A stretch of DNA of 64,000 bases from Escherichia phage vB_EcoM_G2248, in sequence record MK327932.1; one strand, 5' to 3'. Position numbers and translations under genes: made by a program. The notes under the pieces are model-generated. The model worked only from the letters and a program-made list of their open reading frames with translations, had not been told where the DNA came from and did no database searches. This document shows, piece by piece, positions 6,986 through 54,371 of the stretch (positions are counted from its first letter, which is position 1; every line of letters begins with the position of its first letter).

Positions 6986-6999
6986 AATATAATCCTCTA

Positions 7000-7332: not shown

Positions 7333-7335
7333 CCA

Positions 7336-7809: not shown

Positions 7810-7833
7810 AAATTCACCCTCCAAAGAAGGTAT

Positions 7834-8115: not shown

Positions 8116-8123
8116 GTTATACC

Positions 8124-8936: not shown

Positions 8937-9367
8937 TATCCCTTCCTCAAATAAGTTCGCTCAATCTCTACCAGTTCGAAAAATTCATCCCAATCACACG
9001 GAAAATTGCAGTTTCCAAAATGGTCTTCATTGTAAAGCTCTTTACCGGATGGCAACTTAATATCTGTTACAGTATACCAACCGCAACAATCACAATCACC
9101 CTCAACAACAGAAACTTTCGTCGGAATTTGCATCATTGCCAGATAGGTCGGCACGTCAGACTGTTCAAAGATCATGTAACCTTCATTGTCAAACGAAACA
9201 AAATTATCATCGCCCAAAAAAGGGATATAGTGGTCATAATCGGTTACAGGTTGACCGTGCAATTCCCATTCTACAATTTTAACATTACCACTAAACTTGA
9301 TACCCATCATATCAACCATAAAATGAGTATCGTCAATGTAAATCTTACTAGGAGTTGGATAAACCAT
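8936..9367 (-). CDS. hypothetical protein
   Basis: ATG 9367 behind conserved RBS GAGGATTATATAATG. Confidence 0.5.
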   Translation of the reverse strand: MVYPTPSKIYIDDTHFMVDMMGIKFSGNVKIVEWELHGQPVTDYDHYIPFLGDDNFVSFDNEGYMIFEQSDVPTYLAMMQIPTKVSVVEGDCDCCGWYTVTDIKLPSGKELYNEDHFGNCNFPCDWDEFFELVEIERTYLRKG

Positions 9368-9377
9368 TATATAATCC

Positions 9378-9671
9378 TCATATCTCAGAGAATAGAATCT
9401 CTGTTAGCTTCACTGACTGCTCTCTGAATGTTAGCGTATACTCGAAAGGAAAGTCAACACCTAATTTCAGAAGAGAATAGCCTACCGCCTCTTTATGCTT
9501 ATCTGTTAGGGCAATCCTAACCAATTCCAGTTGAATCTCTTTAGGCGGTGAATGGATAGTAACACGGGTATCATGCAATGTCCAGTCACCATTACGAATC
9601 AAGATTAACGGTTTATCGTCATTGAAGATCACCGACCCCTTTCCGGTCGGTGAGTGTTTTATACTAATCAT
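9378..9671 (-). CDS. hypothetical protein
   Basis: Track ORF; start moved from TTG to ATG 9671. Confidence 0.45.
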   Translation of the reverse strand: MISIKHSPTGKGSVIFNDDKPLILIRNGDWTLHDTRVTIHSPPKEIQLELVRIALTDKHKEAVGYSLLKLGVDFPFEYTLTFREQSVKLTEILFSEI

Positions 9672-9885
9672 CAAATTCTAAGAAATATTCTGGAACGATA
9701 TAACCGTTAAAGTCATTGCACTTATAAAAATGTGGTGCATTTAATGCTGGATGAGCGTTTGTAAAGAGTTTACCCTCTAGAAACAGAATGTAATTAATAG
9801 GTCTAATACCTACAGAATCAGGGTCTAAACCTTTTTCTTTCAGTTCAGCCAGCGTTAAAACTCGTCCAGATCGTAACTTAGCCAT
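9664..9885 (-). CDS. hypothetical protein
   Basis: ATG 9885 with RBS AGGGGT. Confidence 0.45.
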   Translation of the reverse strand: MAKLRSGRVLTLAELKEKGLDPDSVGIRPINYILFLEGKLFTNAHPALNAPHFYKCNDFNGYIVPEYFLEFDD

Positions 9886-10171
9886 GATTTACCCCTAATT
9901 CATCAAGATTATGTCGCAGCATTTCAGAGTATTTTTCTACTTCCTTGATCTTAGTGTGGATCTCCACGATCTCATCTTCACTATCAGATAGTTTAATGGC
10001 AATTGCGAGCGTGCTTTTACCAGCTTTCATAGTCTCTTTCCGTTCAACCAATAGATCCGCGTGTTTCAATAGCAATTCTTCACGTCGAACATAAGCGACG
10101 GTCAAAGCCTCATCAGCAATTTCTAAAGCGTTTTCAGCGACACCAACAACCATTTTACGAGTAGACAGCAT
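9878..10171 (-). CDS. hypothetical protein
   Basis: ATG 10171 with RBS GAGGTGA. Confidence 0.45.
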   Translation of the reverse strand: MLSTRKMVVGVAENALEIADEALTVAYVRREELLLKHADLLVERKETMKAGKSTLAIAIKLSDSEDEIVEIHTKIKEVEKYSEMLRHNLDELGVNHG

Positions 10172-10185
10172 AAATTCACCTCACA

Positions 10186-10494
10186 TTATTTCACGTTAAC
10201 GCCGTCATCAATCCAGCCGACGCTATTTGGTTTAACAGTTTTACCATAGGATGCATACTTAATCAAGCATGGTTTAACATCATTATCAAATCTTCCTAAA
10301 CGTACTCCCAAATCAGGAATATCCATGTATGCGGCTTTATATCCCCATGTGCCATATTCAGAATCAATCTCAACCGGACGGCCTTTAAAAGCATACACTA
10401 CACCGTGACGGTCAACGATAACATAGCAATAGCCAGCCGGAAGATACACAGTTTCGCCGTAAACTTTAACTGGAGTAGCAGAAGAGATAAACAT
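10186..10494 (-). CDS. hypothetical protein
   Basis: ATG 10494 behind conserved RBS module and a PeSL-like promoter. Confidence 0.5.
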   Translation of the reverse strand: MFISSATPVKVYGETVYLPAGYCYVIVDRHGVVYAFKGRPVEIDSEYGTWGYKAAYMDIPDLGVRLGRFDNDVKPCLIKYASYGKTVKPNSVGWIDDGVNVK

Positions 10495-10520
10495 AATATA
10501 ATCCTCACATCGTTCATTTG

Positions 10521-10557
10521 ATGCGGTTATTATAGGATAACCGCATTTTCATGTCAA
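10521..10557 (-). promoter_or_regulatory. PeSL-like early promoter with palindrome GCGGTTATCCTATAATAACCGC
   Basis: TTGACA at 10557..10552; the palindrome contains the -10 TATAAT. Confidence 0.5.
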
Positions 10558-10563
10558 CAGTTT

Positions 10564-10872
10564 TTAAAAATCTTCTTCCGGTTTATATCGACCGTCATCA
10601 ACTGGTTTTGGACTGAATCCGGTATGTTTGCGCGGCTTCGCTTCCGGTTTCCCCGCAATCATCAAACCAAAACATTTCATCCCCTTATAACACATAACAA
10701 TATCAACCACGGTCCACGTTATAGGCCATACGATTGCAGCAATACAAAATGCTCCTGTATCGACCTCTTTGGTGTCCTTATCGAATCTGGCATACAAGCA
10801 GAATACTAGATACGAGATCATTGCACCAGTAAGCCAGATATAAAGCACATTAACAATATCTTGTGTTGTCAC
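10564..10872 (-). CDS. small membrane protein (2 predicted TM helices)
   Basis: Hydrophobic segments; probable GTG start at 10872 five nt after GGAGGA, right after the upstream stop. Confidence 0.4.
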   Translation of the reverse strand: MTTQDIVNVLYIWLTGAMISYLVFCLYARFDKDTKEVDTGAFCIAAIVWPITWTVVDIVMCYKGMKCFGLMIAGKPEAKPRKHTGFSPKPVDDGRYKPEEDF

Positions 10873-10882
10873 GTTATCCTCC

Positions 10883-11161
10883 TTACATGTCTTGCAGTGC
10901 ATAAAAGCATTTTTCTTCATAGTCATAGAAAATGTCAAAGTATGCTTTTTCTACATACTCACCATTGATCCAAGCGGCAGTAACAATCAGAGTGGTCCAG
11001 TTCGATCCACTCTCAACGGTAAAGGTTTTAATACCCAGCTTCGCTGCCAAGTCGAACGCAAACCGGACGCAACCACGGCAGGAAGTGATATTTGAAGTTT
11101 TGATTTTAAAGCCACCGCGAGTTTTGGTAATTTCTACTTTAGCGAAAGACAGGTTGCTCAT
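10883..11161 (-). CDS. hypothetical protein
   Basis: ATG 11161 behind RBS AAGGAGAATCAAA and a PeSL-like promoter. Confidence 0.5.
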   Translation of the reverse strand: MSNLSFAKVEITKTRGGFKIKTSNITSCRGCVRFAFDLAAKLGIKTFTVESGSNWTTLIVTAAWINGEYVEKAYFDIFYDYEEKCFYALQDM

Positions 11162-11180
11162 TTTGATTCTCCTTAAGAAA

Positions 11181-11232
11181 GTGTGTTTCGTTTTGATGTG
11201 TGTAGTATAGGGGATACGTGATCCCCTGTCAA
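11181..11232 (-). promoter_or_regulatory. PeSL-like early promoter (TTGACA, palindromic spacer GGGGATCACGTATCCCC, TATACT) plus conserved leader
   Basis: Reverse complement shows hexamers 17 nt apart with the palindrome in the spacer. Confidence 0.5.
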
Positions 11233-11240
11233 CAACTTTT

Positions 11241-11570
11241 TTATGATTTTAGTGAATTAACCACTACATCAAAATGATGTACAGAGTACACCTTATTAAA
11301 CACATATTCATCGTGTTTAGGAATAGCCCCTAATCGCTCTATTTCGCTCGCTGACACGATAAACCGTTTATCCGGTGCATTTACCTTATATGCTTCAACA
11401 ACGCACGGAAAACGCGTTTTAGCGAGTTCGGGATAGTTTTCTGACTCCATCAGGACAATGAATACCCTGTTACATTGATTGTAGAATCCTGTTTTTGATT
11501 TCATCAAGTTTTCTTCTATGTTCAAGTCGTGCAATCTTCTTTTCATGATTTCGTTGGTTCTTGTCTTCAC
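11241..11570 (-). CDS. hypothetical protein (start uncertain)
   Basis: Track ORF with GTG start; internal ATGs at 11546 and 11504 are alternatives. Confidence 0.35.
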   Translation of the reverse strand: MKTRTNEIMKRRLHDLNIEENLMKSKTGFYNQCNRVFIVLMESENYPELAKTRFPCVVEAYKVNAPDKRFIVSASEIERLGAIPKHDEYVFNKVYSVHHFDVVVNSLKS

Positions 11571-11808
11571 AGTTTACCCACTCAACAAGATCTTTACCTA
11601 ACTCGAAAGCCCATTCTCGGTCTTGCTTTACGTTTTGTAGGTATGGACTTTCTGACACTCTACGAAGTGATGTTGTCGTAACAAGAATGATCCCAGGAAT
11701 GGTCGGATGTTCCTTTCCATATACAATCGGACGGGAATCACTTTCGACACCTTGTAAGAAGGTGTATCCTGAATCATTCAGCAACAAATACATTTTCGGT
11801 TCGTTCAT
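11470..11808 (-). CDS. hypothetical protein
   Basis: ATG 11808 with RBS GAGGAA; TGATG overlap with upstream stop. Confidence 0.45.
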   Translation of the reverse strand: MNEPKMYLLLNDSGYTFLQGVESDSRPIVYGKEHPTIPGIILVTTTSLRRVSESPYLQNVKQDREWAFELGKDLVEWVNCEDKNQRNHEKKIARLEHRRKLDEIKNRILQSM

Positions 11809-12065
11809 CACAGATTCCTCAACCAGTTATTAAAGCGAGCAAAGCATGATTCTTTTCGTGCTTTTTCTGCTTTACGGGCAAATCTATCCAAGAAACACCA
11901 TTCATAATCATCATTGTAAATTCCCTCAAAGGAAGCTCCAGCTTTGCGTAATTCTTTGGTTGTTACCAAGAAACTATCATAGAAGGGAGTTCCTCTAACA
12001 ATGACCGGAAGTTTAACACCTTTCAAGAAAGAATAATCGGCATCATTAATAATTTCAATTTTCAT
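11808..12065 (-). CDS. hypothetical protein
   Basis: Track ORF, ATG start. Confidence 0.45.
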   Translation of the reverse strand: MKIEIINDADYSFLKGVKLPVIVRGTPFYDSFLVTTKELRKAGASFEGIYNDDYEWCFLDRFARKAEKARKESCFARFNNWLRNL

Positions 12066-12310
12066 TTTACATTATCTCCATAGATCTTTCCAGCAATATC
12101 AATTTCACCAGCACGAACATCTAGGATAAGATGCGGTAGGTGTATGCAGTTTTCCCACCCTACGCGCTTCATTTCTTCTACGGTAACGTAAGCCCACCCG
12201 TTAGCTGTAATAAAGTCTACTTCAACCTTGAGAGGAAAGCAAGACTTTTCTATGTCTCCGAATCCGACAATATGTTTTGTTGTTGAATATGGAATATATC
12301 CTGTGATCAT
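12062..12310 (-). CDS. hypothetical protein
   Basis: Track ORF, ATG start overlapping upstream stop. Confidence 0.45.
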   Translation of the reverse strand: MITGYIPYSTTKHIVGFGDIEKSCFPLKVEVDFITANGWAYVTVEEMKRVGWENCIHLPHLILDVRAGEIDIAGKIYGDNVK

Positions 12311-12741
12311 TTTGTGATCTCCTTATACTCAACACACCATAAGCGTGTAGCCCATGATAAACGCTCATAACGCTGGCAGAAATCGGACCATAGATATTGT
12401 GTACCGTCTTGCATAGTTGAAATATGCGTTTTCTCGCCTACTTTCACGAAAGATGTATTTGACTTCGTGATCTCGACCGGAGTATATCCGAAAGCGGGTT
12501 CCAAGTCAACATCTGAACTAAATGCCAATTTAACAGAATTTGTTTTTCTGACCGCTGTCCGGTTTCCTTCTGGGTACAGCACAGCAGGTTTAGAGCCTAA
12601 GCGGATAAACTCAGTATTTTTAATGAACAGAATATCATGATAACCGTCATATTCCGACACTTCCATAGTAACAGGAAAATCGATATGTGCTAAACCTGGT
12701 AGATCTCGCATATCATGAAATGTAGCCATCAACTTTTTCAT
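12307..12741 (-). CDS. hypothetical protein
   Basis: Start placed at ATG 12741 behind RBS GAGGAATAT. Confidence 0.45.
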   Translation of the reverse strand: MKKLMATFHDMRDLPGLAHIDFPVTMEVSEYDGYHDILFIKNTEFIRLGSKPAVLYPEGNRTAVRKTNSVKLAFSSDVDLEPAFGYTPVEITKSNTSFVKVGEKTHISTMQDGTQYLWSDFCQRYERLSWATRLWCVEYKEITK

Positions 12742-12751
12742 TCTATATTCC

Positions 12752-12949
12752 TCACTCTTCTGTTTCATTTCTTTTATATGGTACTATAACAGGATTAATA
12801 CAGCAAGCACCAATTACGTTATGAGCACCACAATTTAAGCATTTATAATCATGGAACTTATTAAGGAATCGCCCGAACTCATAACCGACTAACGCCGCGT
12901 GTACTTGAGTATCGATCTCATCCATATCAGCCAATGTTTTAACCTTCAT
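12752..12949 (-). CDS. small zinc-ribbon-like protein
   Basis: CLNCG...CC motif; ATG 12949 behind conserved RBS GAGGATTATATTATG. Confidence 0.45.
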   Translation of the reverse strand: MKVKTLADMDEIDTQVHAALVGYEFGRFLNKFHDYKCLNCGAHNVIGACCINPVIVPYKRNETEE

Positions 12950-12959
12950 AATATAATCC

Positions 12960-13250
12960 TCAAATACTGGTTTTGCGAAGATGGTCATTACATGCTTTTA
13001 ATGCATCAGTCGAGGTGTCATAGCGAGTATTATCATAGCACCAATAACCATCTGTCAACTGATAAATTAATCCATCCTTTTTAGCGTCGATGAAAGACAA
13101 TTCTTTGAAAGTTTCTACTTTCTTTGCTGATACTCCACGGTCACGGCGTTTATAGAGTTTAGCTAAAACGCGTTCAGCTTGTTCCTCTTTATCGCCAGAC
13201 AGATCCCAGATGACGTTTCTGATATGCTTGATTAATTGTTCAGTGGTCAT
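12960..13250 (-). CDS. hypothetical protein
   Basis: ATG 13250 behind RBS AAGGAGAATCAAAT and a PeSL-like promoter. Confidence 0.5.
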   Translation of the reverse strand: MTTEQLIKHIRNVIWDLSGDKEEQAERVLAKLYKRRDRGVSAKKVETFKELSFIDAKKDGLIYQLTDGYWCYDNTRYDTSTDALKACNDHLRKTSI

Positions 13251-17059: not shown

Positions 17060-17458
17060 TTAAGCCAGTCGAGTGAGTTTATAAATGGTTTTAAAGCATA
17101 GAGCTTTGATATCGTCTAAAACGCTCTGTAACGAGCTATCAACATCATTATAAATCTCACTAGCCATTTGCGTTAACTCTTGCAAATAGGCAATTTCGCT
17201 AATCTCCTTGCGGACGACCAACGTTGGTTGATAACGACCAGTGATCCCAATATTGGTTTCAGTGAAATTATCAACCAATTCTTGCATTTCAAGATAGAAC
17301 TCTTCTAGCGCCTTATGTTTTGCATAAGAACCAGGACCAGTCACCCCAAAATGCGCAGAATGCATATAAGTAACACTCATCAGACATTCACCGATAAAGC
17401 GGTCAACTTTATTAGCTTTCCCGTCTTCGGACGTCTTTCGAAAATCACTGAATTTCAT
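17060..17458 (-). CDS. hypothetical protein
   Basis: Start placed at ATG 17458 behind RBS GGAGAATC. Confidence 0.45.
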   Translation of the reverse strand: MKFSDFRKTSEDGKANKVDRFIGECLMSVTYMHSAHFGVTGPGSYAKHKALEEFYLEMQELVDNFTETNIGITGRYQPTLVVRKEISEIAYLQELTQMASEIYNDVDSSLQSVLDDIKALCFKTIYKLTRLA

Positions 17459-17747
17459 GTTCTCGATTCTCCATATTATGCAACATAACAAATTGGTTTG
17501 CGGCATATTCCCCCATAATAAAACACTGCTTAGAGTCCATACATTTACTACGAGCGTACATCTTCATAATGTGGGCATGAAATTTCTGGCTGGTTTCAAT
17601 GGAAGGAGATATTTTGTTTACATATACTATCATCGCACCGTCGAAATAATCAGTAAAGTCACCAGTTAGATCATATTGATCAGCACTGACACTTCCGACC
17701 GCTGTCAAGCATATTGCCGTTGTTAGAGTTTTACGAATAAATGACAT
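17445..17747 (-). CDS. rI-like lysis-inhibition regulator candidate (signal-anchor plus periplasmic domain)
   Basis: N-terminal hydrophobic segment; Y-x3-C-x5-C-x3-G-x2-A-x-Q pattern resembles T4 RI (from memory); lies just downstream of tk. Confidence 0.4.
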   Translation of the reverse strand: MSFIRKTLTTAICLTAVGSVSADQYDLTGDFTDYFDGAMIVYVNKISPSIETSQKFHAHIMKMYARSKCMDSKQCFIMGEYAANQFVMLHNMENREHEIQ

Positions 17748-17780
17748 GAGTCATTCCCCCAGATTGAAAATATTCAGTTA

Positions 17781-17788
17781 TATTTATA
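17781..17788 (-). promoter_or_regulatory. late promoter TATAAATA
   Basis: Exact TATAAATA on the minus strand about 33 nt upstream of ATG 17747. Confidence 0.5.
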
Positions 17789-17815
17789 ATCTGGGGCTTT
17801 ATTTATGATTAACTC

Positions 17816-27634: not shown

Positions 27635-27829
27635 TTATTCAAACTCAAACGGTCTATTCATCCTATTGTAAAAGTACATATAACAAGCATAGTTATGTTT
27701 TGGTTGTACCGTATCAGATAGACACGCTTTTACAGCCTCGCGGTCCGATGGGTCTACACCCTCAGCTTTAAGTAATGCTAAAATCTGGTTATAGCGTACT
27801 CTTAGTTGTACTAATGGTTTATCCCCCAT
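27635..27829 (-). CDS. hypothetical protein
   Basis: RBS AGGGGG before ATG 27829. Confidence 0.45.
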   Translation of the reverse strand: MGDKPLVQLRVRYNQILALLKAEGVDPSDREAVKACLSDTVQPKHNYACYMYFYNRMNRPFEFE

Positions 27830-27838
27830 ATTACCCCC

Positions 27839-28060
27839 TTATAGTTGATCAGCGATGTAAGCGTGACAAGCGCGGAGTTTCATTAATGCACTACCTTTCA
27901 CTTCGCCTACGATGTTCATAACTTCTAAGCGGTCGGATGGATTCATCTTAGAGCACCAGATCTGGTTAGCCAATTCCAGTTTACTCATATTTGGTTCCAT
28001 CTCAAACAGTTCACGCTCAAAGTCGATAATTTCTTTTGCTGCGTCTTTAAAGTTAATCAT
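27839..28060 (-). CDS. hypothetical protein
   Basis: ATG 28060 behind GGAGAATCAAA-type RBS and a PeSL-like promoter. Confidence 0.5.
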   Translation of the reverse strand: MINFKDAAKEIIDFERELFEMEPNMSKLELANQIWCSKMNPSDRLEVMNIVGEVKGSALMKLRACHAYIADQL

Positions 28061-28074
28061 TTTGATTCTCCCGT

Positions 28075-28118
28075 TTCGTTGATGGTTGTATTGTAGGGGA
28101 GTTATCCTCCCCTGTCAA
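28075..28118 (-). promoter_or_regulatory. PeSL-like early promoter with palindrome AGGGGAGGATAACTCCCCT
   Basis: TTGACA at 28118..28113; G-rich palindrome in the spacer. Confidence 0.5.
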
Positions 28119-28126
28119 CACTTTTA

Positions 28127-28312
28127 TCAGAAATATGCAATATAGTTTGCCAGTCCTACAGAGTCATCATTCGGCATTGCTTTTACTGCCAGTTCAAACC
28201 CTACTTCAACTTTCTGTTTAGCGGATTCTTCGTTATAACCCCAGATTACCAGAATAGCTACTACGTTTTCTTTGCTTACTGCTTTCAGTGCTTTAGTGAT
28301 GCGACGTGCCAT
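28127..28312 (-). CDS. hypothetical protein
   Basis: ATG 28312 behind RBS ACGGAGAATCAAATT. Confidence 0.45.
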   Translation of the reverse strand: MARRITKALKAVSKENVVAILVIWGYNEESAKQKVEVGFELAVKAMPNDDSVGLANYIAYF

Positions 28313-28330
28313 AATTTGATTCTCCGTTTA

Positions 28331-28385
28331 AGAAAGTGTGTTTCGTTTCGATGGGTGTATTATGCTATAGGCCGGATCTGGTGTC
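28331..28385 (-). promoter_or_regulatory. PeSL-like early promoter plus conserved leader
   Basis: Near-identical to the copy at 27361..27415. Confidence 0.55.
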
Positions 28386-28412
28386 AACAACTTTTTTAAA
28401 AAAATTTTAGGC

Positions 28413-28437
28413 AATAAAAAAGCCACTCCGAAGAGTG
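28413..28437 (-). terminator. rho-independent terminator
   Basis: Hairpin GCCACTCTTCGGAGTGGC with a UUCG-type loop followed by TTTTTTATT on the minus strand. Confidence 0.65.
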
Positions 28438-28440
28438 GCT

Positions 28441-28588
28441 TATAGGGAAGGTAGCGAATCTTCCTTGTCTCCAACCTGCTAGCGGCCTAGCAAGTGAATG
28501 CTTTAGCGTACCGGATCGCCCATACGCTGCAATAAATGCGGCTAGGTGACGTCCAAATCATTCTAACCGCGCTGTCTTTAGTTCACTA
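28441..28588 (-). ncRNA. candidate structured non-coding region or small RNA just upstream of a terminator
   Basis: About 145 nt without a credible ORF, more GC-rich than its surroundings, several local hairpins (GGAAG...CTTCC, GCGTA...TACGC). Confidence 0.25.
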
Positions 28589-28807
28589 TTATTTATATCG
28601 CTTTCTCTCGCGACGTTTTTGATCTTCTTCCTTGATAGAGTTAAATGCATCAAAAAGACACATGACACTAATAATAAACATAACCGTATTTTCTACGGTA
28701 TCCCACGGCTTCGCATCAGTACAGATCCCCCAAACGGTAAGAAATGCAAATAAGGCAGAAGAGATCACAAGAATGATACTTGCTAAAATATAAAAAGTCA
28801 TTTTCAT
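28589..28807 (-). CDS. small membrane protein
   Basis: Hydrophobic 72-aa ORF. Confidence 0.4.
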   Translation of the reverse strand: MKMTFYILASIILVISSALFAFLTVWGICTDAKPWDTVENTVMFIISVMCLFDAFNSIKEEDQKRRERKRYK

Positions 28808-28998
28808 GGTTTTACCTCAATTCTTCGATATTCATCACACATCCACGCAGTAAGCAAGAATCCCAACACATAAGCAACAAAATACGTTAATGCTTCTTCT
28901 GGTTCGGTGCTATGCGCCATCATCAGACCAGCGAGAAAGGTCTTAACAATTACATTTAAAATAATTAGCCACGCAAATAATTTCATCGTTTGCCCCAT
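28804..28998 (-). CDS. small membrane protein
   Basis: Hydrophobic 64-aa ORF. Confidence 0.4.
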   Translation of the reverse strand: MGQTMKLFAWLIILNVIVKTFLAGLMMAHSTEPEEALTYFVAYVLGFLLTAWMCDEYRRIEVKP

Positions 28999-29207
28999 TT
29001 CGGTCGAGTCTTTTCAAACTTATACATTCCGTAACAATCTCGAATCATCCACGTAACAAGAGCACCAGTCAACACAGACAATACACAGAAGAAGTAAAAC
29101 GGTCCGGTTGCATTATCAACATGAGCAAGCCAGGTAAAGAAAACACATGCAAGGAATGTAAAGAACATCATAAAGCACAAGAAAGCGAAATATTTTATAC
29201 TACTCAT
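28983..29207 (-). CDS. small membrane protein
   Basis: Start placed at ATG 29207 with RBS GGTGG. Confidence 0.4.
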   Translation of the reverse strand: MSSIKYFAFLCFMMFFTFLACVFFTWLAHVDNATGPFYFFCVLSVLTGALVTWMIRDCYGMYKFEKTRPKWGKR

Positions 29208-29310
29208 AGCGCCACCATACAACAGATCATAAGAAACCCCAACGCAATAAGAATTGCATCAAATTTAGTGAACTCAGGTCCACCTATCAACATCATTCGT
29301 TCCTGTTCAT

Positions 29311-29550
29311 TCATAGATCACAGAGCCATCTTACAGCACCACATAAAGCGATCAAAAGACTAGGTATAAACGAGACTAAAACAAGACTACAAAAATCATC
29401 TAAGGTAACGCCGGAATAGCTACCTACTGTAACAACACCGATCATCAGACACAGAAAGAAAACAAATGCAATCAGAAACAAAGTATTGCTAAACAGTTTA
29501 GTGATCATTAGACACCCCACGACGATCAATTTCAAAAACTTTTTTATCAT
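29311..29550 (-). CDS. small membrane protein
   Basis: Hydrophobic; start moved to ATG 29550. Confidence 0.4.
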   Translation of the reverse strand: MIKKFLKLIVVGCLMITKLFSNTLFLIAFVFFLCLMIGVVTVGSYSGVTLDDFCSLVLVSFIPSLLIALCGAVRWLCDL

Positions 29551-29701
29551 CAACGAAGCATGTCACAACTGCATCGTTGACTTCCGCAAATTGTTGTGTT
29601 ACCCACTTAAGGTCAGAGCGAAACAATGTTCTATTAATAACAAATGTTTTACCGCTCTTATCCTTACCCATAAATTTTGCTTTAACCATATCAAATTCCA
29701 T
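29498..29701 (-). CDS. hypothetical protein
   Basis: Track ORF, ATG 29701. Confidence 0.4.
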   Translation of the reverse strand: MEFDMVKAKFMGKDKSGKTFVINRTLFRSDLKWVTQQFAEVNDAVVTCFVDDKKVFEIDRRGVSNDH

Positions 29702-29710
29702 ATTATCACC

Positions 29711-29869
29711 TTATTTGCTAATCGCTAAACCCAATCCGAAGAGAGCACCCGATGCTACAGTATACCCGAAAGTTTCAAATGCAGTAAAGATATCTAAGCC
29801 ACCAGCTAACAGAGTTGCAGTAAACAGAGTACCAGCTACGAACATAAAAGTTTTACCGATAAATTTCAT
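29711..29869 (-). CDS. small membrane protein (52 aa, below track cutoff)
   Basis: Own translation MKFIGKTFMFVAGTLFTATLLAGG...; RBS AGGAGAATCAAA; PeSL-like promoter directly upstream. Confidence 0.45.
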   Translation of the reverse strand: MKFIGKTFMFVAGTLFTATLLAGGLDIFTAFETFGYTVASGALFGLGLAISK

Positions 29870-29880
29870 TTTGATTCTCC

Positions 29881-29929
29881 TTTCGTTTGTTTGTGGGGGT
29901 ATCTTACTACCCCCGTTTCATGTTGTCAA
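29881..29929 (-). promoter_or_regulatory. PeSL-like early promoter with palindrome GGGGGTAGTAAGATACCCCC
   Basis: TTGACA at 29929..29924; the palindrome spans the -10. Confidence 0.5.
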
Positions 29930-29935
29930 CTATTT

Positions 29936-30310
29936 TTAAGAATATTTTACTTCGTCTACAATGTCTTTCATGACATTGATTTCCATTCCGGTCAGAACAC
30001 GTTGGAACATGTGCTGCACATACGCTTTCAGGTATTCATTTGATGGCTTACTATCGAAAGTCTTTTTAGTGTAGTAGTCATCACCGAAAGCTACTGTAAT
30101 TACATTTTCGTCGTCGTTCCAAGCGATATAAGCAAATTTGCCGTTATCCCAGAAGCGAGCACTAATTGCTACTTTTGTTGAATCGAATCCTACTTCGCTG
30201 TGAGATTCAAGAACTACTTGCGTACCAGTTTCTTTATGAATGTAGTAGCGGGATACTAAGTCAAAGTTACGGGTGTAGTGACATTCGAATTTATCTTTAA
30301 ACATCATCAT
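29936..30310 (-). CDS. hypothetical protein
   Basis: Start placed at ATG 30310 behind RBS AGGAGAATCAAA; the track ORF extends further. Confidence 0.45.
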   Translation of the reverse strand: MMMFKDKFECHYTRNFDLVSRYYIHKETGTQVVLESHSEVGFDSTKVAISARFWDNGKFAYIAWNDDENVITVAFGDDYYTKKTFDSKPSNEYLKAYVQHMFQRVLTGMEINVMKDIVDEVKYS

Positions 30311-30322
30311 TTTGATTCTCCT

Positions 30323-30376
30323 AAGTGTGTTTCGTTTCGATATGTGCATTATGCTATAGTCGTTTATGGTTGTCAA
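30323..30376 (-). promoter_or_regulatory. PeSL-like early promoter plus conserved leader
   Basis: TTGACA at 30376..30371, -10 CATAAT, leader ATCGAAACGAAACACACTTAGGAGA. Confidence 0.55.
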
Positions 30377-30381
30377 CACCT

Positions 30382-30412
30382 AAAAACAAAAAACCCCGAA
30401 AAATTTTCGGGG
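30382..30412 (-). terminator. rho-independent terminator downstream of 57B
   Basis: Hairpin CCCCGAAAATTTTTCGGGG followed by a T-run on the minus strand. Confidence 0.6.
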
Positions 30413-32442: not shown

Positions 32443-32463
32443 TACTGATTCCTCAAATGAAAA

Positions 32464-32471
32464 TATTTATT
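32464..32471 (-). promoter_or_regulatory. possible late promoter variant AATAAATA upstream of gene 3
   Basis: One mismatch from TATAAATA, about 25 nt upstream of ATG 32442. Confidence 0.3.
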
Positions 32472-32631
32472 AACAATTGTCGCTTTGCGACGTGCCGGAG
32501 GCACTGACTACTTTTTAACCGAAACAAATTTTTATTATTCTAAAGATCTTTCTTCGTTTTGGTTATGTTTTAACCAATAACTATATTTTTATACAGTAAT
32601 AAATAAAACGGGTACTATACGAGGACTTCTT

Positions 32632-32886
32632 ATGACAGAAGACATTTTGTTAAAACTCTATGATCGTCTGGATAACGAATTAGCAACATTGCGGGGTGAA
32701 GTTCTCTATTTGTCTAAATGCAATACAGATCTGCTTAAGCAGATTGCAGAAAGGGATGACCAAATAAAATCCCTTTCAGGTGCATTACGTGATCGCGACA
32801 AAGCATTAGAGATTTTACAGCGTGTTACCAATAAGGAAGAATTAAAAGACTTCTTACATGGTTATGCTCATGCCATCGATCTATAA
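32632..32886 (+). CDS. small coiled-coil protein, antisense to the flanking genes
   Basis: 84-aa ORF with RBS GAGGA before ATG 32632; ends at a terminator. Confidence 0.45.
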   Translation: MTEDILLKLYDRLDNELATLRGEVLYLSKCNTDLLKQIAERDDQIKSLSGALRDRDKALEILQRVTNKEELKDFLHGYAHAIDL

Positions 32887-32919
32887 TAAAAAAGCCCGTC
32901 AATGACGGGCTTAATTTTT
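32886..32919. terminator. bidirectional rho-independent terminator
   Basis: Hairpin GCCCGTCAATGACGGGC flanked by an A-run and a T-run. Confidence 0.65.
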
Positions 32920-33946
32920 AATATGTATCAGCTAATTTAATTATGTTATCAAGTTCCGTTATTGGTAAAGTTTCTGTGTATCCATCTTTCAACATAGATT
33001 TATCAACAACGCCACATTGATAAGTTCTCTTTATTTCCTTTTCAAGTTCCCACGGAATCCAGCCATCAACACTTTGTTTGACGTAAACAAGTTTATGAAC
33101 AAACTTAGATTTCTGCATATGTTGTTTCATTCTGGTTTCCGGTAATTCATTGGTTACACCAAACTTTATAAATTTATCATCTAACGTCTGGATATAAAAA
33201 TATCCTATCTCAGATGGACGATAGCCAGAAGAACTACATTTCGGACACCCTTTAGCATTTCTGCTGAACGTACAATATCTTACGGAAAATTCGGCGTCAT
33301 GTTTTGTACATTTAAGTTTTATCCATGAATTTGCAGTACCTATCCATTCACCATCGACACCTATATATTCATACCCTAACTTTTTACATTTATCTTCTAT
33401 TCTAGATAGTGCATCTTCTACGGGAACGACATATTCCGTCTTAAATTGTTCAGCCGCACATTTCTTACAACCACATGTACCATGATTTTTAAAATCAAAG
33501 AACTTTGTATTCTTCCAAATATGGTCATGTTTCTTGCATCTAAGAATAATCTTAGTAATTTGTGATTTCCAGCCACCAACAAATCCCAAAAATTCATAAT
33601 CAAGATCTTTACATTTTTCTTCAATGAATTTGGTTGCTTCCTCTTCTGTCATAACTCCCCTACATTGAGGACAACCAACAATAACCTTTTTAGCATAGAA
33701 ACTATTACTGGAAACATCATAGACAGATCCATGCTTATTGCATTGGATAACAGATCTAGTCAATTTTCCTTTCCATTCTCCAGAAAATCCTAAGAATGTA
33801 TGGTCGACAAGTTTACACCTTTCAATAACTTTATCCGCAAATTCTCTAGGAGATTTTGTTACTTTGTTTACTCTGTATTCTATTTCTTCCGGTTGACGAA
33901 GATAATAAACGTGGGGATTGCTCCCCACGGAATTAATATTAAGCAT
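32918..33946 (-). CDS. putative GIY-YIG-like nuclease with three N-terminal zinc-ribbon repeats (candidate homing endonuclease)
   Basis: Three ~45-aa repeats each ending in a CxxC-type motif (CPQCRG, CGCKKC, CPKCSS); C-terminal GYFYIQTL...FIKFGVT...R...H; ATG 33946 with RBS AAGGAAGG. Confidence 0.4.
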   Translation of the reverse strand: MLNINSVGSNPHVYYLRQPEEIEYRVNKVTKSPREFADKVIERCKLVDHTFLGFSGEWKGKLTRSVIQCNKHGSVYDVSSNSFYAKKVIVGCPQCRGVMTEEEATKFIEEKCKDLDYEFLGFVGGWKSQITKIILRCKKHDHIWKNTKFFDFKNHGTCGCKKCAAEQFKTEYVVPVEDALSRIEDKCKKLGYEYIGVDGEWIGTANSWIKLKCTKHDAEFSVRYCTFSRNAKGCPKCSSSGYRPSEIGYFYIQTLDDKFIKFGVTNELPETRMKQHMQKSKFVHKLVYVKQSVDGWIPWELEKEIKRTYQCGVVDKSMLKDGYTETLPITELDNIIKLADTY

Positions 33947-34760
33947 CCTTCCACACCTTCCTTGCATCATAGTTTTTACCTTTAGAAACAAATTTATATG
34001 TGTTAAGGTAGATAATATTGCTCCAGTCTTTCGGGCTAATCTCAACAAGTTTTGTTTTAATGTGTCCCGGTAGATATGCTTTGATCATGTGATCACTTCC
34101 ACGCATACCTTTTACATCGCTCCATTTGATTTTTAAGCGTGTTTTATTGCTCAAGGTAGGAGTAGATGCATATTGCTTTAAAAGTGCCTCTAAAAACTGC
34201 TGACGGGCTTTAGGAGTTACATAGTGTAAGTTAAGACCCAGCATCACAGTATTACCCGCCTTTGTCTTAGAATCACCCAGACAAATGATCAGCGGGAAAA
34301 CATCCCAATATGGCAAAGTGTCTTTATACTTAGCATCATACATAAAGGTATAGATTCGCCCTACTTGCGGTTTTACAATCTGGTGTCCCTTTATTCCAGC
34401 TTTTATTGTTTTAGTAAACCACTCCTGTGATTTTTCTTTAGGACGACTCTTTGATACAGCACGCATAGACGCACGAAAATCATTAATCATCATCATTGCG
34501 CGTTGCTGCTTATTGAGACCCTTTGCGCCTTTCCCTTTTAGTTTTTCAACTTCTATTGCTGTTTTAATTTCGCTGGCATAACGAGACATACTTTTAGTGA
34601 AAGTCGCATAGGCTATTCCCTTAGAATCTGCAAATGCTTTAGCTGTCATGCCTTTGGCTTTTGCTTTCGCAAATTCTACACCCAATTCGACCCACTGTTT
34701 AGACTTTCTTTTTTGGGGAGACGGCTTTTCGTCTTCTGTGATTATTTCAAATACGCTCAT
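33939..34760 (-). CDS. 2: DNA end protector protein gp2
   Basis: 273-aa basic protein at the T4 gene 2 position upstream of gene 4. Confidence 0.65.
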   Translation of the reverse strand: MSVFEIITEDEKPSPQKRKSKQWVELGVEFAKAKAKGMTAKAFADSKGIAYATFTKSMSRYASEIKTAIEVEKLKGKGAKGLNKQQRAMMMINDFRASMRAVSKSRPKEKSQEWFTKTIKAGIKGHQIVKPQVGRIYTFMYDAKYKDTLPYWDVFPLIICLGDSKTKAGNTVMLGLNLHYVTPKARQQFLEALLKQYASTPTLSNKTRLKIKWSDVKGMRGSDHMIKAYLPGHIKTKLVEISPKDWSNIIYLNTYKFVSKGKNYDARKVWKDA

Positions 34761-34771: not shown

Positions 34772-35245
34772 CTATTTGTTAAGCCCTTTAAAGCCAAACA
34801 CTTTCTTTAATGCATGTTCGGTGATGATCTTAAACTCCATGTTATGCTTTTGGCATAATTTCACGGCAGCTAACCATTTTTCAGTATTTTTTGTGTATGT
34901 CCATACTTCATGCATATATCGTTGCTTTGTCTTCGCGGTCATTCTTTTTGGCTTTTCCGGTGGCCTTGTCTCTTTAGCTGGTTTAACTTCCCATAAATGC
35001 TCCTTGCCATCATCAAACTTAACGTAAAAATCCATAAAGTATCTGTGTCTTTTTCCGTCTGTTGATGACTCATAAGGAATTACTACGGTCTCAGATCCCC
35101 ATTTTGCAACTCTAGGATTGCGGTCTAGCCACTGCATGATCCATCTTTCCCAGCTTGAACGGTATGTGATCTTACGTATATCCCCTTTATACTTTTCCTT
35201 ATTCTCAGGAACATACTTGCCCTTATAAGTGTTAGATCCTCCCAT
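34772..35245 (-). CDS. 4: head completion protein gp4
   Basis: 157 aa, divergently arranged next to gene 53 as in T4. Confidence 0.7.
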   Translation of the reverse strand: MGGSNTYKGKYVPENKEKYKGDIRKITYRSSWERWIMQWLDRNPRVAKWGSETVVIPYESSTDGKRHRYFMDFYVKFDDGKEHLWEVKPAKETRPPEKPKRMTAKTKQRYMHEVWTYTKNTEKWLAAVKLCQKHNMEFKIITEHALKKVFGFKGLNK

Positions 35246-35260
35246 TTTAGCACCCTTTAT

Positions 35261-35268
35261 TATAAATA
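35261..35268 (+). promoter_or_regulatory. late promoter TATAAATA for gene 53
   Basis: Exact TATAAATA about 33 nt upstream of ATG 35301. Confidence 0.6.
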
Positions 35269-35276
35269 CATAATAC

Positions 35277-35284
35277 TATTTATC
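35277..35284 (-). promoter_or_regulatory. probable late promoter GATAAATA for genes 4 and 2
   Basis: One mismatch from TATAAATA, about 32 nt upstream of ATG 35245. Confidence 0.35.
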
Positions 35285-35300
35285 AATTGAGGGTGCTAAA

Positions 35301-35855
35301 ATGCTCTTTTCTTTCTTCCCTGCCATTGAATACAACGGCAAGATGATTACTGACATTGTGCGCAATTACCGCGCATATTTCAACGCAATAATTTCTGATT
35401 ATAACATACAAACATATTACATTCAAGGTAGTCCACGACCGGAACAAGTTGCATATGAAGTATACGGAAACCAACAACTTTATTGGATCTTGCTGATGCT
35501 TAATGACGTATACGATCCGTTCCATGACTGGATCACCGATCAAGAGACAGCATATGAATCAGCCGAACAACGATATGCAAACGTAGGAGGAAATCAAGTA
35601 TTATACCACGTTGATATTGACGGAAACAAGTATTGGAATCTTACCGAATATCCGAAAGGATCAAGCAATTGGTATGATAAAGGGGATATTCATCACCGTT
35701 ATTTGCAGTTTCAGGGTGCATTATCGGCAGTAGACACACTGGAAGATGCGATCCTCCGTAATGAGGAACGACGCAAGATCAAGATCATAGATCCTACACA
35801 AATTAAACAATTTATTAACGCATTCATTCGAGAAATGGAAAAGGCTGATGTGTAA
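35301..35855 (+). CDS. 53: baseplate wedge protein gp53
   Basis: 184 aa, immediately upstream of gene 5 as in T4. Confidence 0.7.
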   Translation: MLFSFFPAIEYNGKMITDIVRNYRAYFNAIISDYNIQTYYIQGSPRPEQVAYEVYGNQQLYWILLMLNDVYDPFHDWITDQETAYESAEQRYANVGGNQVLYHVDIDGNKYWNLTEYPKGSSNWYDKGDIHHRYLQFQGALSAVDTLEDAILRNEERRKIKIIDPTQIKQFINAFIREMEKADV

Positions 35856-35866: not shown

Positions 35867-37666
35867 ATGCTAATGTTTAATAACTCCGTTAAATGGTTTA
35901 CCGGAATTGTAGAAAACAGGGAAGACCCATTAATGCTGGGGCGTGTTCAGGTTAGGATTCATGGTATACATCCCTCGCTATCCGCGCACGGTGACATTCA
36001 AGGTCTTCCAACCGAAGATCTATTATGGATTACGCCAGTACAAGATATTACAAGCGCGGCGATCTCCGGTATAGGTCAAAGCCCTACTGGTATTGTTGAA
36101 GGTTCAATGGTATTTGGTTTGGCTTTAGATGAACGTTATTTAAACTGCGTTATTCTGGGTACTATTGCCGGACAATATACAGAGAAACCACTCACTACAG
36201 AAGGTTTTTGCGACCCTTCTGGTGCATATCCTCGTTATATTGGTAATGATGTTAATATTCTTGCTCGTGGCGGTATTAACCCAGAAACCGGACAAACAAC
36301 AAAACCTGATAGTGTCTATATTCGAGATGAAAACACTGGAGTTGCAGTAAATCCAGACGACGAGCCATTAGACCAAATTCCGGTTGATGATAATCCTGAT
36401 TTTACAATAGAAAAAATGCTGCGGGGCGATGAGGGGTATCGCGAGAAATGGTATCTTGATTCAGAAGGATATCCGACAATAGGCATCGGGCATTTGATCA
36501 TTTATAAGAAAACCAGTGATCTTGGTATTATCAATAATGAACTTTCTAAGCTGGTAGGGCGTGAAGTTACAAACGGAAGACTTACCGCCGAAGAAGTTAG
36601 TAAAGTATTTGCTGACGATATAGAAAAGACTCGTCGTGATATGCGCAAACATCCACGAATTGCACCTGTCTATAATAAATGTAATGCCTCACGTCGTATG
36701 GCATTAGAAAATATGGCGTTTCAAATGGGTGTTGGTGGATTGGGTAAATTTAAGAATAGTCTTGCTGCGATGTTAGCGGAAGAATGGAAACAAGCCTATG
36801 ATGGATTACGTCAATCGGTATGGGCTAACCAAACTCCAGGACGCTCCAGCCGTGTTTCTAAAATTATTTTAACTGGTAACTTAGAATCATATGGCGTAAT
36901 TGCTCCAAAGAAAGAGGAATCAATTTCTGATGATCCGCGAGCACGTTTGAGAAATGCCCGTATTGCTGCCTATAAGACGCAGAGAGCAGAAGAAGACCCA
37001 GAAGCACCGTTTACCCCACAAGACACACGAATCATGTTTAAAGAGCCTAAGAGTTCGTATTCTGCTAGGTATCCTTATAACCATGTGTACGAGTCAGAGA
37101 GCGGTCATATTATCGAGATTGATGATACTCCTTCTCATGAGCGATATCATCGTAAACATCCTTCGGGTACATTTGAAGAAACCAGACCGGACGGAACGAG
37201 GGTAGAAAAGATTGAAGGCGATGATTATCTGATCGTTAAACAAGGCCGGAAAGTAAACGTTAAGGGTAATTTGCAAGTTGTTGTTGAAGGTGACGCGCAA
37301 GTTTATTATATGGGTAATGTGATGCAAACCGTTGATGGCAACGTCACTGAATTTATTCGTGGCAATGTTAATCAGACCGTTGAAGGTACTGCTAACATGC
37401 ATGTTGTTGGTGATGTTATCGCACAGCTTGACGCTAATTTGACGGCTAACGTCAAGGGTAATGCTGAATTAATGATCGAGGGTAACACTACCGAAACAAT
37501 TAAAGGTAACTATGATTTAACCGTTGAGGGTAATTTTAATATGACCGTCAATGGCACTAAATCAGATCAGGTTAATGGTGACTGGTCCCGTAATTGTGGT
37601 GCAAGCGTTAAAGATATTGCATCTGGTACAGTTCAAATTGATGGTAGCCGTATTGATTTTGGGTGA
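35867..37666 (+). CDS. 5: baseplate hub and tail lysozyme gp5
   Basis: T4-lysozyme-like domain (LRGDEGYREKWYLDSEGYPTIGIGHLI) and C-terminal repeats of the type VxGNxxxxVxG. Confidence 0.9.
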   Translation: MLMFNNSVKWFTGIVENREDPLMLGRVQVRIHGIHPSLSAHGDIQGLPTEDLLWITPVQDITSAAISGIGQSPTGIVEGSMVFGLALDERYLNCVILGTIAGQYTEKPLTTEGFCDPSGAYPRYIGNDVNILARGGINPETGQTTKPDSVYIRDENTGVAVNPDDEPLDQIPVDDNPDFTIEKMLRGDEGYREKWYLDSEGYPTIGIGHLIIYKKTSDLGIINNELSKLVGREVTNGRLTAEEVSKVFADDIEKTRRDMRKHPRIAPVYNKCNASRRMALENMAFQMGVGGLGKFKNSLAAMLAEEWKQAYDGLRQSVWANQTPGRSSRVSKIILTGNLESYGVIAPKKEESISDDPRARLRNARIAAYKTQRAEEDPEAPFTPQDTRIMFKEPKSSYSARYPYNHVYESESGHIIEIDDTPSHERYHRKHPSGTFEETRPDGTRVEKIEGDDYLIVKQGRKVNVKGNLQVVVEGDAQVYYMGNVMQTVDGNVTEFIRGNVNQTVEGTANMHVVGDVIAQLDANLTANVKGNAELMIEGNTTETIKGNYDLTVEGNFNMTVNGTKSDQVNGDWSRNCGASVKDIASGTVQIDGSRIDFG

Positions 37667-53604: not shown

Positions 53605-54345
53605 ATGTTTAACAACACTCTTTTTGCTCGCCTTGAATCGCAAAAGGATTATGAGAATACACGACAAACAGAGATTCTTAATCCTTATGTGAACTTTCAC
53701 AAATATACAAATACTCAGACGTTAGCCGACGTTATGGTCGCCGAAGCTATTCAGATGCGAGGTGTAGAATTATATTACATCCCTCGTGAATTTGTCAAAC
53801 CAGATATGATATTTGGTGAGGATGTTCAAAGCAAATTTACTAAAGCATGGAAATTTGCGGCTTATATTAACTCATTTGATGGGTATGAAGGAGCGGGTAA
53901 CTTCTTCTCTAGTTTCGGTTATCAAGCCAATGATGAACTAACTTTTACGGTTAACCCCAACCTATTCAAGCATCAAGTAGATGATCAAGAGCCAAAATCA
54001 GGTGACTTGATTTATATTCCAATGAGTAATGATTTATTTGAAATCTCATATGTAGAGCCATATCAGCCGTTTTTTCAGGCTGGCAAAAATGCCATGCGTA
54101 AAATTATTGCAGAGAAATTCGTGTATAGCGGCGAGGAATTGCGACCAGAATTACAACGCAATGAGGGAATTAATGTTGATGAGTTTGCGGATCTGGACCT
54201 TGCACCGATCACTAATCTGGACGGATTAACAGATATCAACTTAGAACAGTACAAAGAAGATAAGCAATTCAGAAGCGAAGGACAAGATTTTATTGACCCG
54301 TTTGATCCTATTAATGGCAAGGGTTCACCTTTTGCTAATTTTTGA
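53605..54345 (+). CDS. 14: neck protein gp14
   Basis: 246 aa, synteny and size. Confidence 0.8.
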
Positions 54346-54371
54346 TAAATACTCATAAACAAGGGGGTCAA

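Follow-up and report, generated by a model that had tools for sequence, protein, structure and literature searches.

A 14-bp perfect inverted repeat brackets two opposed late promoter boxes in the 55-nt spacer that separates the divergent genes 4 and 53 of this phage. We explain the locus as the RB49-lineage version of a T4-type divergent late promoter module, in which the two arms were copied from one another and the hairpin that they form would act as a gate on translation; to this explanation as a whole we assign a probability of about one half. The 14-bp repeat is real and non-random, and we found no description of it in the literature consulted.

Results

Genetic context and anatomy of the gene 4/gene 53 spacer

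The window (the whole 64-kb stretch of DNA that was analysed) belongs to an RB49-like phage (Krischvirus, Straboviridae). In a 1.2-kb stretch around the spacer, identity to RB49, Phi1, JSE, ECD7 and Skers ranges from 98.9 to 99.8%. Judged by their sequences, the two genes flanking the spacer are orthologues of T4 genes 4 and 53, and the divergent arrangement, the gene identities and the 55-nt gap are all as the original prediction had described them. Gene 53 is the first gene of a plus-strand late unit. On the other side, gene 2 is the second gene of the minus-strand late unit, after gene 4; directly downstream of its stop at 33939 lies a terminator-like hairpin that is the probable end of this unit. 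The features of the region are collected in Table 1.

Table 1. Features of the gene 4/gene 53 region (positions in the 64-kb window).
Feature	Position	Strand	Basis or remark
Gene 4 (head completion protein)	34772-35245	minus	ORF; RB49 annotation; Pfam TnsA-like N-terminal domain, 4e-21
Gene 53 (baseplate wedge subunit)	35301-35855	plus	ORF; RB49 annotation; Pfam Phage_gp53, 1e-58
Gene 2 (DNA end protector)	33939-34760	minus	ORF; orthologous RB49 annotation
Gene 5 (baseplate hub and tail lysozyme)	35867-37666	plus	ORF; RB49 annotation; follows gene 53 in one unit
Terminator-like hairpin and T-run	33910-33929	minus	8-pair stem (6 GC), 4-nt loop, tail TTTATTATCT
Gene 4 start codon (CAT)	35243-35245	minus	Direct reading
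Left 11-bp arm, TTTAGCACCCT	35246-35256		Direct reading
Right 11-bp arm, AGGGTGCTAAA	35290-35300		Direct reading; ATG follows at 35301
T4-type late promoter box for gene 53, TATAAATA	35261-35268	plus	Exact match
Probable gene 4 late promoter box, GATAAATA	35284-35277	minus	Plus strand reads TATTTATC
Left arm with start codon, CATTTTAGCACCCT	35243-35256		Minus strand reads AGGGTGCTAAAATG, the gene 4 translation-initiation region (SD, spacer, AUG)
Right arm with start codon, AGGGTGCTAAAATG	35290-35303		Gene 53 translation-initiation region; SD GAGGG at 35289-35293
Predicted late start sites	~35274; ~35271	plus; minus	Between the arms; from the T4 box-to-start distance
Whole quasi-palindrome	35243-35303		Outer stem of 14-15 pairs; inner stem of paired late boxes; 8-nt loop

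Read directly from gene 4 towards gene 53, the spacer has the order CAT-TTTAGCACCCT-TTAT-TATAAATA-CATAATAC-TATTTATC-AATTG-AGGGTGCTAAA-ATG. It had been described as carrying an 11-bp perfect inverted repeat; the repeat is present and, because the CAT and ATG start codons lengthen its arms, measures 14 bp (35243-35256/35290-35303). A repeat search returned a longer, imperfect form with arms of 19 nt (35243-35261/35285-35303), 89% complementarity and two mismatches. The accompanying statement that the two genes share an identical ribosome-binding context was correct as well: the Shine-Dalgarno (SD) sequence, the 7-nt spacer and the start codon all match. Both boxes were likewise found where they had been placed. 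Only their description as "back to back" does not stand in the usual sense of the term, the boxes being interleaved, with the plus-strand box nearer gene 4, the minus-strand box nearer gene 53 and 8 bp between them. Since the boxes face each other across these 8 bp, the predicted start sites lie only about 3 bp apart. The predicted promoters overlap by a few base pairs, and each of the predicted leaders (27 and 26 nt, mutually non-overlapping) contains the complement of the other promoter's box.

The frequency expected for such a repeat was derived from 100 first-order Markov simulations of the window. For perfect inverted repeats with arms of 14 bp or more and a loop of no more than 60 nt, the expectation was 0.02 per window, and one was observed. 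The arms are identical on the coding strand of each gene, so that the repeat amounts to an 11-nt in-register identity of two initiation regions. Identity of at least 11 nt in register upstream of two starts is seen in 14 of the 3828 gene pairs in the window, the other 13 of which all stem from a few shared early-gene cassettes. A search of the window for a second site of the 14-mer found none, the best other matches having three mismatches. Two unrelated ribosome-binding regions might in principle be identical by coincidence, the more so as opposed SDs always give an inverted repeat of 4-6 bp; set against 0.02 expected repeats, and against identical pairs that otherwise are all derived from cassettes, this explanation is effectively refuted.

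A probable T4-type divergent late promoter module

By sequence and location the spacer very probably holds a T4-type (gp55-dependent) late promoter module. To place it among its relatives, the spacers of T4, RB69 and about 26 distinct Straboviridae spacer types (from phage records, IMG/VR and metagenomes) were compared. In T4, RB69 and most of the spacer types, the elements follow a common order: the gene 4 start (or the start of an inserted homing endonuclease gene), an SD complement, a plus-strand TATAAATA, 7-15 nt, a minus-strand TATAAATA (read on the plus strand as TATTTATA), an SD and the gene 53 start. The T4 spacer, for instance, reads CAT-TGGATTCTCC-TTATAAATA-GATAATA-TATTTATA-AAC-AGGAGGGCCC-ATG. 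About 20 spacer types besides T4 and RB69 have boxes at the equivalent positions. Promoters had also been predicted here before. Nolan et al. 2006 (PMC1524935, Additional file 5) listed a plus-strand late promoter of RB49 at 64518-64560 (Pl:64518), a segment that equals 35235-35277 of the window and contains the TATAAATA box. The same study (PMC1524935) predicted both divergent promoters of RB69, Pl:80613 (+) and Pl:80684 (-), and both fall inside the RB69 4/53 spacer. The orthologous layout and these published predictions support the earlier view of the spacer as a compact divergent late promoter region for two late operons. The divergent promoter module is thus ordinary, ancestral and largely predicted already in the literature.

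The minus-strand box GATAAATA is not among the promoters predicted by Nolan et al. 2006. It matches TATAAATA at 7 of 8 positions, with the sole difference at -13, and is positionally equivalent to the TATAAATA of T4, RB69 and other relatives. The T4 late promoter box spans -13 to -6 relative to the start, and T4-like phages, RB49 among them, show poor conservation of the T at -13 (PMC1524935); the sequence of RB49 gp55 is listed in a review (PMC2988020). A metagenomic relative, L049, carries AATAAATA at the position of the minus-strand box. The poor conservation of -13, together with the AATAAATA of L049, makes GATAAATA acceptable as a late box, and we consider it a credible candidate for the gene 4 late promoter. 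At least one other well-placed GATAAATA occurs in the window, at 54344-54351, upstream of an SD and an ATG.

Motif counts were dropped as an argument for promoters, as they do not rise above shuffles: TATAAATA is not enriched in the window (7 observed versus 6.25 expected), nor is ATAAATA (19 observed versus 24.8 expected from shuffles). Only orientation was informative. All 19 copies of ATAAATA in the window are oriented with the local genes, which argues that the motif is used, and otherwise avoided. Two other promoter-like readings of the spacer were rejected. A sigma-70-like minus-strand promoter, TTGATA-16-TATAAT (11/12), would start transcription inside the gene 4 SD, and its -35 element is not kept in L049; we treat this match as a by-product of the A/T-rich late boxes. 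The arms can also be read as symmetric -35-like hexamers (TTAGCA, 9/12 matches, on both strands), at a level expected by chance. Literature searches on anti-late RNA and on mapped starts of T4 late transcripts yielded nothing usable.

We infer both the position of the start sites and the activity of GATAAATA. On these terms, the two late transcripts would begin within about 3 bp of each other near the midpoint of the spacer and diverge from there, the minus-strand transcript reaching through genes 4 and 2 to the terminator at 33929-33910 and the plus-strand transcript covering genes 53, 5 and onwards. Because the promoters overlap, presumably only one polymerase could be on the site at a time.

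Predicted folding and a possible translational gate

RNA that runs across both arms is predicted to fold with -27.6 kcal/mol on the plus strand and -27.7 kcal/mol on the minus strand (z -8.9 and -6.4), and none of 200 shuffles was as stable. On either strand this fold leaves the SD and AUG of the downstream gene fully paired, with the late boxes forming the inner stem. By contrast, RNAs that begin at 35274 (plus) or 35271 (minus) fold no better than shuffles (z -0.75 and +0.75). Since the predicted starts lie between the arms, late transcripts would carry a single arm and an open ribosome-binding site. As single-stranded DNA the spacer folds with -16.6 kcal/mol (z -7.3). In modelled structure and in predicted start placement, the spacer thus has the features of a hairpin that sequesters a ribosome-binding site around an internal late promoter.

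We propose that RNA arriving from outside and crossing the spacer would include both arms and close into a hairpin, about 25 bp long, in which the downstream gene's SD and AUG are buried. For gene 4 and gene 53 alike, translation would then depend on a transcript begun at the gene's own late promoter, with one palindrome serving both directions. The existence of read-through RNA and the selective value of the hairpin are what we infer here. Gating is the most likely functional meaning of the repeat; that it is a function for which the hairpin was selected we hold only tentatively, at somewhat less than even odds. The fuller version of the idea is more doubtful. It would make the spacer a gate on translation in both directions, and perhaps an insulator of transcription, such that RNA entering from either side, for example early antisense RNA passing through the late genes, is silenced for the downstream late operon and only RNAs born at the late promoters are translated, with arms kept matched by concerted evolution through templated copying and with independent origins in several T4-type lineages.

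A late promoter set within a hairpin does appear, from predicted folds, to be a design used by this phage elsewhere in its genome. The minus strand downstream of tk is predicted to form, at 17745-17800, a hairpin (CCCCAGAT...ATCTGGGG) with TATAAATA in its loop; the SD covered by this hairpin belongs to an rI-like late gene for a 100-aa secreted protein. With -25.5 kcal/mol (z -6.2), this hairpin would be a textbook example.

Sources of RNA that might enter the spacer were sought on both sides. Sigma-70-like matches occur at chance frequency (38 versus 31 +/- 6), and among them there was no convincing outside promoter; an example is a 10/12 match on the minus strand, from 35426 to 35398. The left (plus-strand) side is shielded by a bidirectional terminator at 32892-32912 and by the terminator at 33929-33910. 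On the right side lie 28 kb of antisense late genes without a minus-strand ATAAATA. The early genes of this phage are encoded on the same strand as the late genes 4 and 2. Gene 5 of T4 harbours two early genes, repEA and repEB, in antisense orientation, immediately upstream on the gene 4 strand, which makes sense read-through into gene 4 conceivable. Early synthesis of gp4 or gp53 would not obviously be harmful, and this counts against a gate.

Variation of the arms within and between lineages

Predicted stability of the spacer differs widely between lineages. RB49-like spacers reach -25.9 kcal/mol, the L018 spacer -25.5 kcal/mol and SP1-like spacers -17 to -20.5 kcal/mol. Values of about -15 kcal/mol were obtained for T4 and two other spacers (L012 and L043), and values of -4 to -9 kcal/mol for RB43-like, Rgz1-like and CC31-like spacers and others, among them L009 and L039, in which the complementarity does not exceed that of two opposed SDs. 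With so many lineages devoid of long arms, these are not a conserved requirement. Where long arms do occur outside the RB49-like group, they measure 12 bp in L018 (CATAGTGCCTCC/GGAGGCACTATG) and 11 bp in SP1-like phages (TGCCTCCTATT/AATAGGAGGCA); the perfect repeat is lost in L060, a close relative of L018. Complementarity of the arms is higher within than between lineages (permutation p = 0.0014), a weak co-variation at the level of the family that fits copying as well as selection.

Within Krischvirus, 58 records were sampled and every variant was fetched. Perfect arms are the majority allele (39 of 58). A change of C to A at 35296 is found in about 14 of the 58, including RB49, JSE, ECD7 and Skers, and an extra T in the left arm in 4; each of them breaks pairing. 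These are the only two polymorphisms, both in the arms, and the loop with both boxes is invariant throughout. No compensatory change or covariation was seen in the 58 records, and in this sense the stem is not conserved. Phages that share only about 90% identity over a 1.2-kb query have the same spacer sequence; this was considered as a sign of purifying selection, a reading that was rejected, the divergence being confined to gene 4. In those phages gene 4 differs by 20-25%, the difference ending at about 35212-35225, and gene 53 by 1-2%; at the latter rate 0-1 change is expected in 55 nt, so that no constraint is implied.

Origin of the arms and alternative explanations

Copying of one arm onto the other is the probable reason for their identity. 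RB43-like phages have, at gene 4, an initiation region (AGGATCTAAAATG) similar to the gene 4 arm, and their gene 53 region is unrelated; that only the gene 4 side shows this resemblance suggests that the gene 53 side was overwritten. We envisage, then, that the initiation region of gene 53 was replaced with a copy of the gene 4 side. The spacer was already a quasi-palindrome because it contains two opposed SDs and two opposed late boxes, and a quasi-palindromic spacer is a classic substrate for template-switch correction. Such correction of imperfect palindromes is reportedly an established mutational process, first described in T4 by Ripley and colleagues. An origin by copying is compatible with a later function.

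It is also conceivable that the copy is all there is to explain. The arms would then have no regulatory role, being the near-neutral and slowly decaying by-product of template switching or gene conversion, and only the promoters and ribosome-binding sites would be functional. An identity that is exact, contiguous and in register with both starts looks like a copy and unlike complementarity built up by gradual selection, and the one-sided resemblance to RB43-like relatives agrees with this. Unrelated genes of this genome, moreover, often have identical initiation regions, as with GAGGATTATATTATG at five early genes and GGAGAATCAAA(T)ATG at four; shared regions of this kind belong to the PeSL cassettes that recombine in RB49 and phi1 (PMC2839356). 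The only polymorphisms in the 58 genomes are uncompensated changes in the arms, and perfect arms occur sporadically and are lost among near relatives (L018 versus L060). What a mere by-product leaves unexplained is the independent presence of long arms in at least three lineages, and the perfect form is still that of the majority (39 of 58 records). Nor is this account at odds with a function gained after the copy, as the hairpin forms whatever its origin. We regard arms without a role as a real possibility, nearly as likely as a two-way gate and itself well short of an even chance.

Two further explanations fared much worse. The palindrome could serve mainly as a transcription barrier or insulator, stopping antisense RNA from genes 2 and 4 ahead of the baseplate operon, with the late promoter restarting transcription inside the hairpin, an arrangement that would be the late counterpart of the PeSL cassettes with their promoter and stem-loop. 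A stable hairpin is indeed predicted, it is followed on the plus strand by the U-rich start of gene 53 (CUCUUUUCUUUCUU; five of the eight bases after the stem are T), and RB49 and phi1 are known to have cassettes that combine promoter and terminator (PMC2839356). Against this, a terminator scan made no call at the spacer, the stem is rich in A-U pairs at its base, the inner stem is interrupted, no U-tract exists on the minus-strand side, and the U-rich run is accounted for by the conserved N-terminus of gene 53, MLFSFF. In intrinsic terminators of T4 and E. coli the stem is GC-rich and the loop 4 nt long (PMC2988022), and the spacer does not have the features of a rho-independent terminator. 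A barrier, conceivable for the plus strand only, is therefore improbable as the main role. A signal at the level of DNA is more improbable still, whether an operator for a dimeric protein acting on both promoters, a cruciform or hairpin site, or part of the target of an HNH homing endonuclease. The symmetry is exact in DNA, the single strand folds with -16.6 kcal/mol, MIZ6, Rgz1, L020 and L049 have an HNH/NUMOD3 endonuclease gene precisely between the gene 4 ATG and the left arm, and two late promoters of T4 reportedly overlap A/T-rich sites to which DsbA binds (PMC2988020). Yet neither a candidate protein nor a second site was found (three mismatches in the best 14-mer matches), the half-site centres are 44 bp apart (a long way for a simple dimer operator), lineages with long arms have completely different arm sequences, and an endonuclease is found at the equivalent position also in genera without long arms. 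A homing-endonuclease origin of the arms was rejected as well, since the endonuclease uses the gene 4 initiation region of the local genus, with long arms or without.

Discussion

Should the hairpin be functional, the licensing principle of T4 late promoters would extend to core structural genes and would gain a symmetric form, with one element for two divergent operons. Closely spaced divergent genes would then insulate each other merely by having similar ribosome-binding regions, a design rule for mutual insulation that could be useful in compact synthetic modules for bidirectional expression. Should it not be functional, the spacer would provide a clean natural case of two initiation regions evolving in concert across a quasi-palindrome.

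Among known elements, the PeSL cassettes of RB49, phi1 and JSE are alike in combining a promoter, a stem-loop and an SD/ATG in compact form and in sharing initiation regions between genes. They differ in that PeSLs hold sigma-70-type early promoters and are direct repeats in hyperplastic early regions, where they mediate deletions and the formation of mini-circles (PMC2839356), whereas the 4/53 element, with its late boxes, occurs once, as an inverted pair within the conserved structural core, and has no sequence in common with the early cassettes. Membership of the spacer in this class was rejected on the late-type boxes, the lack of a 14-mer copy with fewer than three mismatches and the different early cassettes. 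A search of Rfam gave nothing above threshold, the matches being generic hairpins (plant miRNA precursors, a CRISPR repeat) with 19-20 bits versus 35-100.

The closest counterparts of the promoter module are the 4/53 spacers of T4 and RB69, which have the same genes, orientation and order of elements, with a gap of 7-8 nt between the boxes. The minus-strand box is GATAAATA here and TATAAATA in T4 and RB69. The flanking complementarity is perfect over 14 bp here, as opposed to about 5 bp (CTCCT/AGGAG) in T4, and the whole spacer folds with -25.9 kcal/mol here versus -15.3 kcal/mol in T4 and -13.5 kcal/mol in RB69.

For the proposed gate, the precedents are hairpins that mask a ribosome-binding site and enclose a late promoter, as known for T4 e, soc, 49, I-TevI, I-TevII, I-TevIII and segB and for mobE of Aeh1 (PMC3014915, PMC2988022). 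In these cases the long early transcripts are untranslatable and the late transcripts that start inside the hairpin are translated (PMC3014915, PMC2988022). The 4/53 spacer is like the e/soc/I-TevI type in having the SD and AUG in the 3' arm and a late box placed so that the late transcript would omit the 5' arm. The T4 and Aeh1 genes lie inside an early or middle unit and their read-through RNA is documented, whereas no such unit is evident here. The symmetric hairpin of genes 4 and 53 also differs from the T4 and Aeh1 cases in the nature of its 5' arm, which is the complement of the other gene's ribosome-binding region.

A homing endonuclease at the start of gene 4

Some Krischvirus phages (MIZ2, MIZ3, MIZ6, Brandy, PTE-Eco09, ELT4 and the metagenomic relative L049) carry an HNH/NUMOD3 homing endonuclease gene (phrog_655) whose insertion point falls precisely between the left arm of the inverted repeat and gene 4. 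Outside Krischvirus, the Gualtarvirus Rgz1 and relatives of Enterobacter phage CC31 have the insertion too, and identity between the MIZ6 and Rgz1 proteins is 44%. The endonuclease ATG stands in place of that of gene 4, whose own start ATG, in the carriers, overlaps the endonuclease stop codon. The gene 4 initiation region now serves the endonuclease, which in the Krischvirus carriers is thus the gene behind the hairpin arm.

Gene 4 is a hot spot for mosaicism. Its divergence is 20-25% in phiS, KMB43, JK32 and Cognac, against only 0-2% for gene 53 and the spacer, and the divergent patch stops 20-30 nt inside the gene 4 5' end. This mosaicism may reflect allele exchange or co-conversion tied to the adjoining endonuclease insertion site. 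A separate segment of about 1 kb, missing in RB49, lies between the ORF130w-like gene and gene 2. It codes for a protein of about 350 aa with a phrog_681 (endonuclease) match and CapR homology domains, is edged by a bidirectional terminator and the gene 2 terminator, and is probably another mobile endonuclease gene.

Positions of the features discussed (window coordinates unless a locus is named)
Feature	Position	Strand	Remarks
HNH/NUMOD3 insertion point	35245/35246
HNH/NUMOD3 endonuclease gene	L002 2046-2741		MIZ6
HNH/NUMOD3 endonuclease gene	L004 274-945		Rgz1
HNH/NUMOD3 endonuclease gene	L020, L021, L049
Mosaic stretch of gene 4	34799-35225	minus
ORF130w-like gene	32632-32886
Segment missing in RB49	32918-33930	minus
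Bidirectional terminator	32892-32912
Gene 2 terminator	33929-33910
Second divergent late pair	32443-32631
Late box AATAAATA	32471-32464	minus	gene 3
Late box AATAAATA	32598-32605	plus	ORF130w-like gene
Late promoter within hairpin	17445-17800	minus
Late box TATAAATA	17788-17781	minus	flanked by hairpin arms CCCCAGAT and ATCTGGGG
100-aa ORF	17445-17747	minus	signal peptide; 3' of thymidine kinase gene
Sigma-70-like match	35259-35286	minus	toward gene 4
Margaery gene 4 start and spacer	L005 922-958
T-run, gene 53 codons 2-3	35306-35309		one T shorter in L086

Promoter motifs in the spacer and elsewhere

The top sigma-70-like match within 10 kb (TTGATA-16-TATAAT, 11/12) overlaps both late boxes of the spacer between genes 4 and 53, and its start would fall in the gene 4 SD. 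The match probably arises incidentally from the A/T-rich late boxes; its -35 hexamer is absent from L049.

The window holds a second divergent late pair, whose boxes follow the usual back-to-back order with 127 bp between them. This interval contains small hairpins, and no long repeat flanks the pair. Elsewhere, a late promoter enclosed by an RBS-masking hairpin is a canonical case of that arrangement. One hairpin arm (ATCTGGGG) spans the SD of a 100-aa ORF that looks rI-like. On folding, the long RNA across the hairpin gave -25.5 kcal/mol (z -6.2), and the RNA from the late start was unstructured.

Upstream of gene 53, four Aeromonas-phage-like loci (L029, L031, L032, L062) carry two TTAAATA-like late-type boxes separated by a GC-rich palindrome, CTCCCGGGAG; their back-to-back layout is unlike the interleaved one of the window spacer. 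TATAAATA is missing from both strands of the RB43-like spacers (Citrobacter phage Margaery, L005, and loci L011, L013-L017 and L044), where only strings resembling CTAAATA occur. The gene 4 annotation of Margaery is probably 11 codons too short at its start: translation from an upstream ATG yields MAGRQTYKGSFMPQ, alignable with RB49 MGGSNTYKGKYVPE. In L086 (vB_Eco_TB34), a missing T would cause a frameshift of gene 53, which lacks annotation there; this is probably an assembly error.

Common initiation regions of early genes

Unrelated early genes of the window (4600-13000 and 27800-30400, minus) have identical translation-initiation regions: GAGGATTATATTATG precedes five genes and GGAGAATCAAA(T)ATG four, often with TTGACA-stem-loop-TATAAT upstream. 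These modules match the published promoter-early stem-loop (PeSL) cassettes of RB49 and phi1 (PMC2839356).
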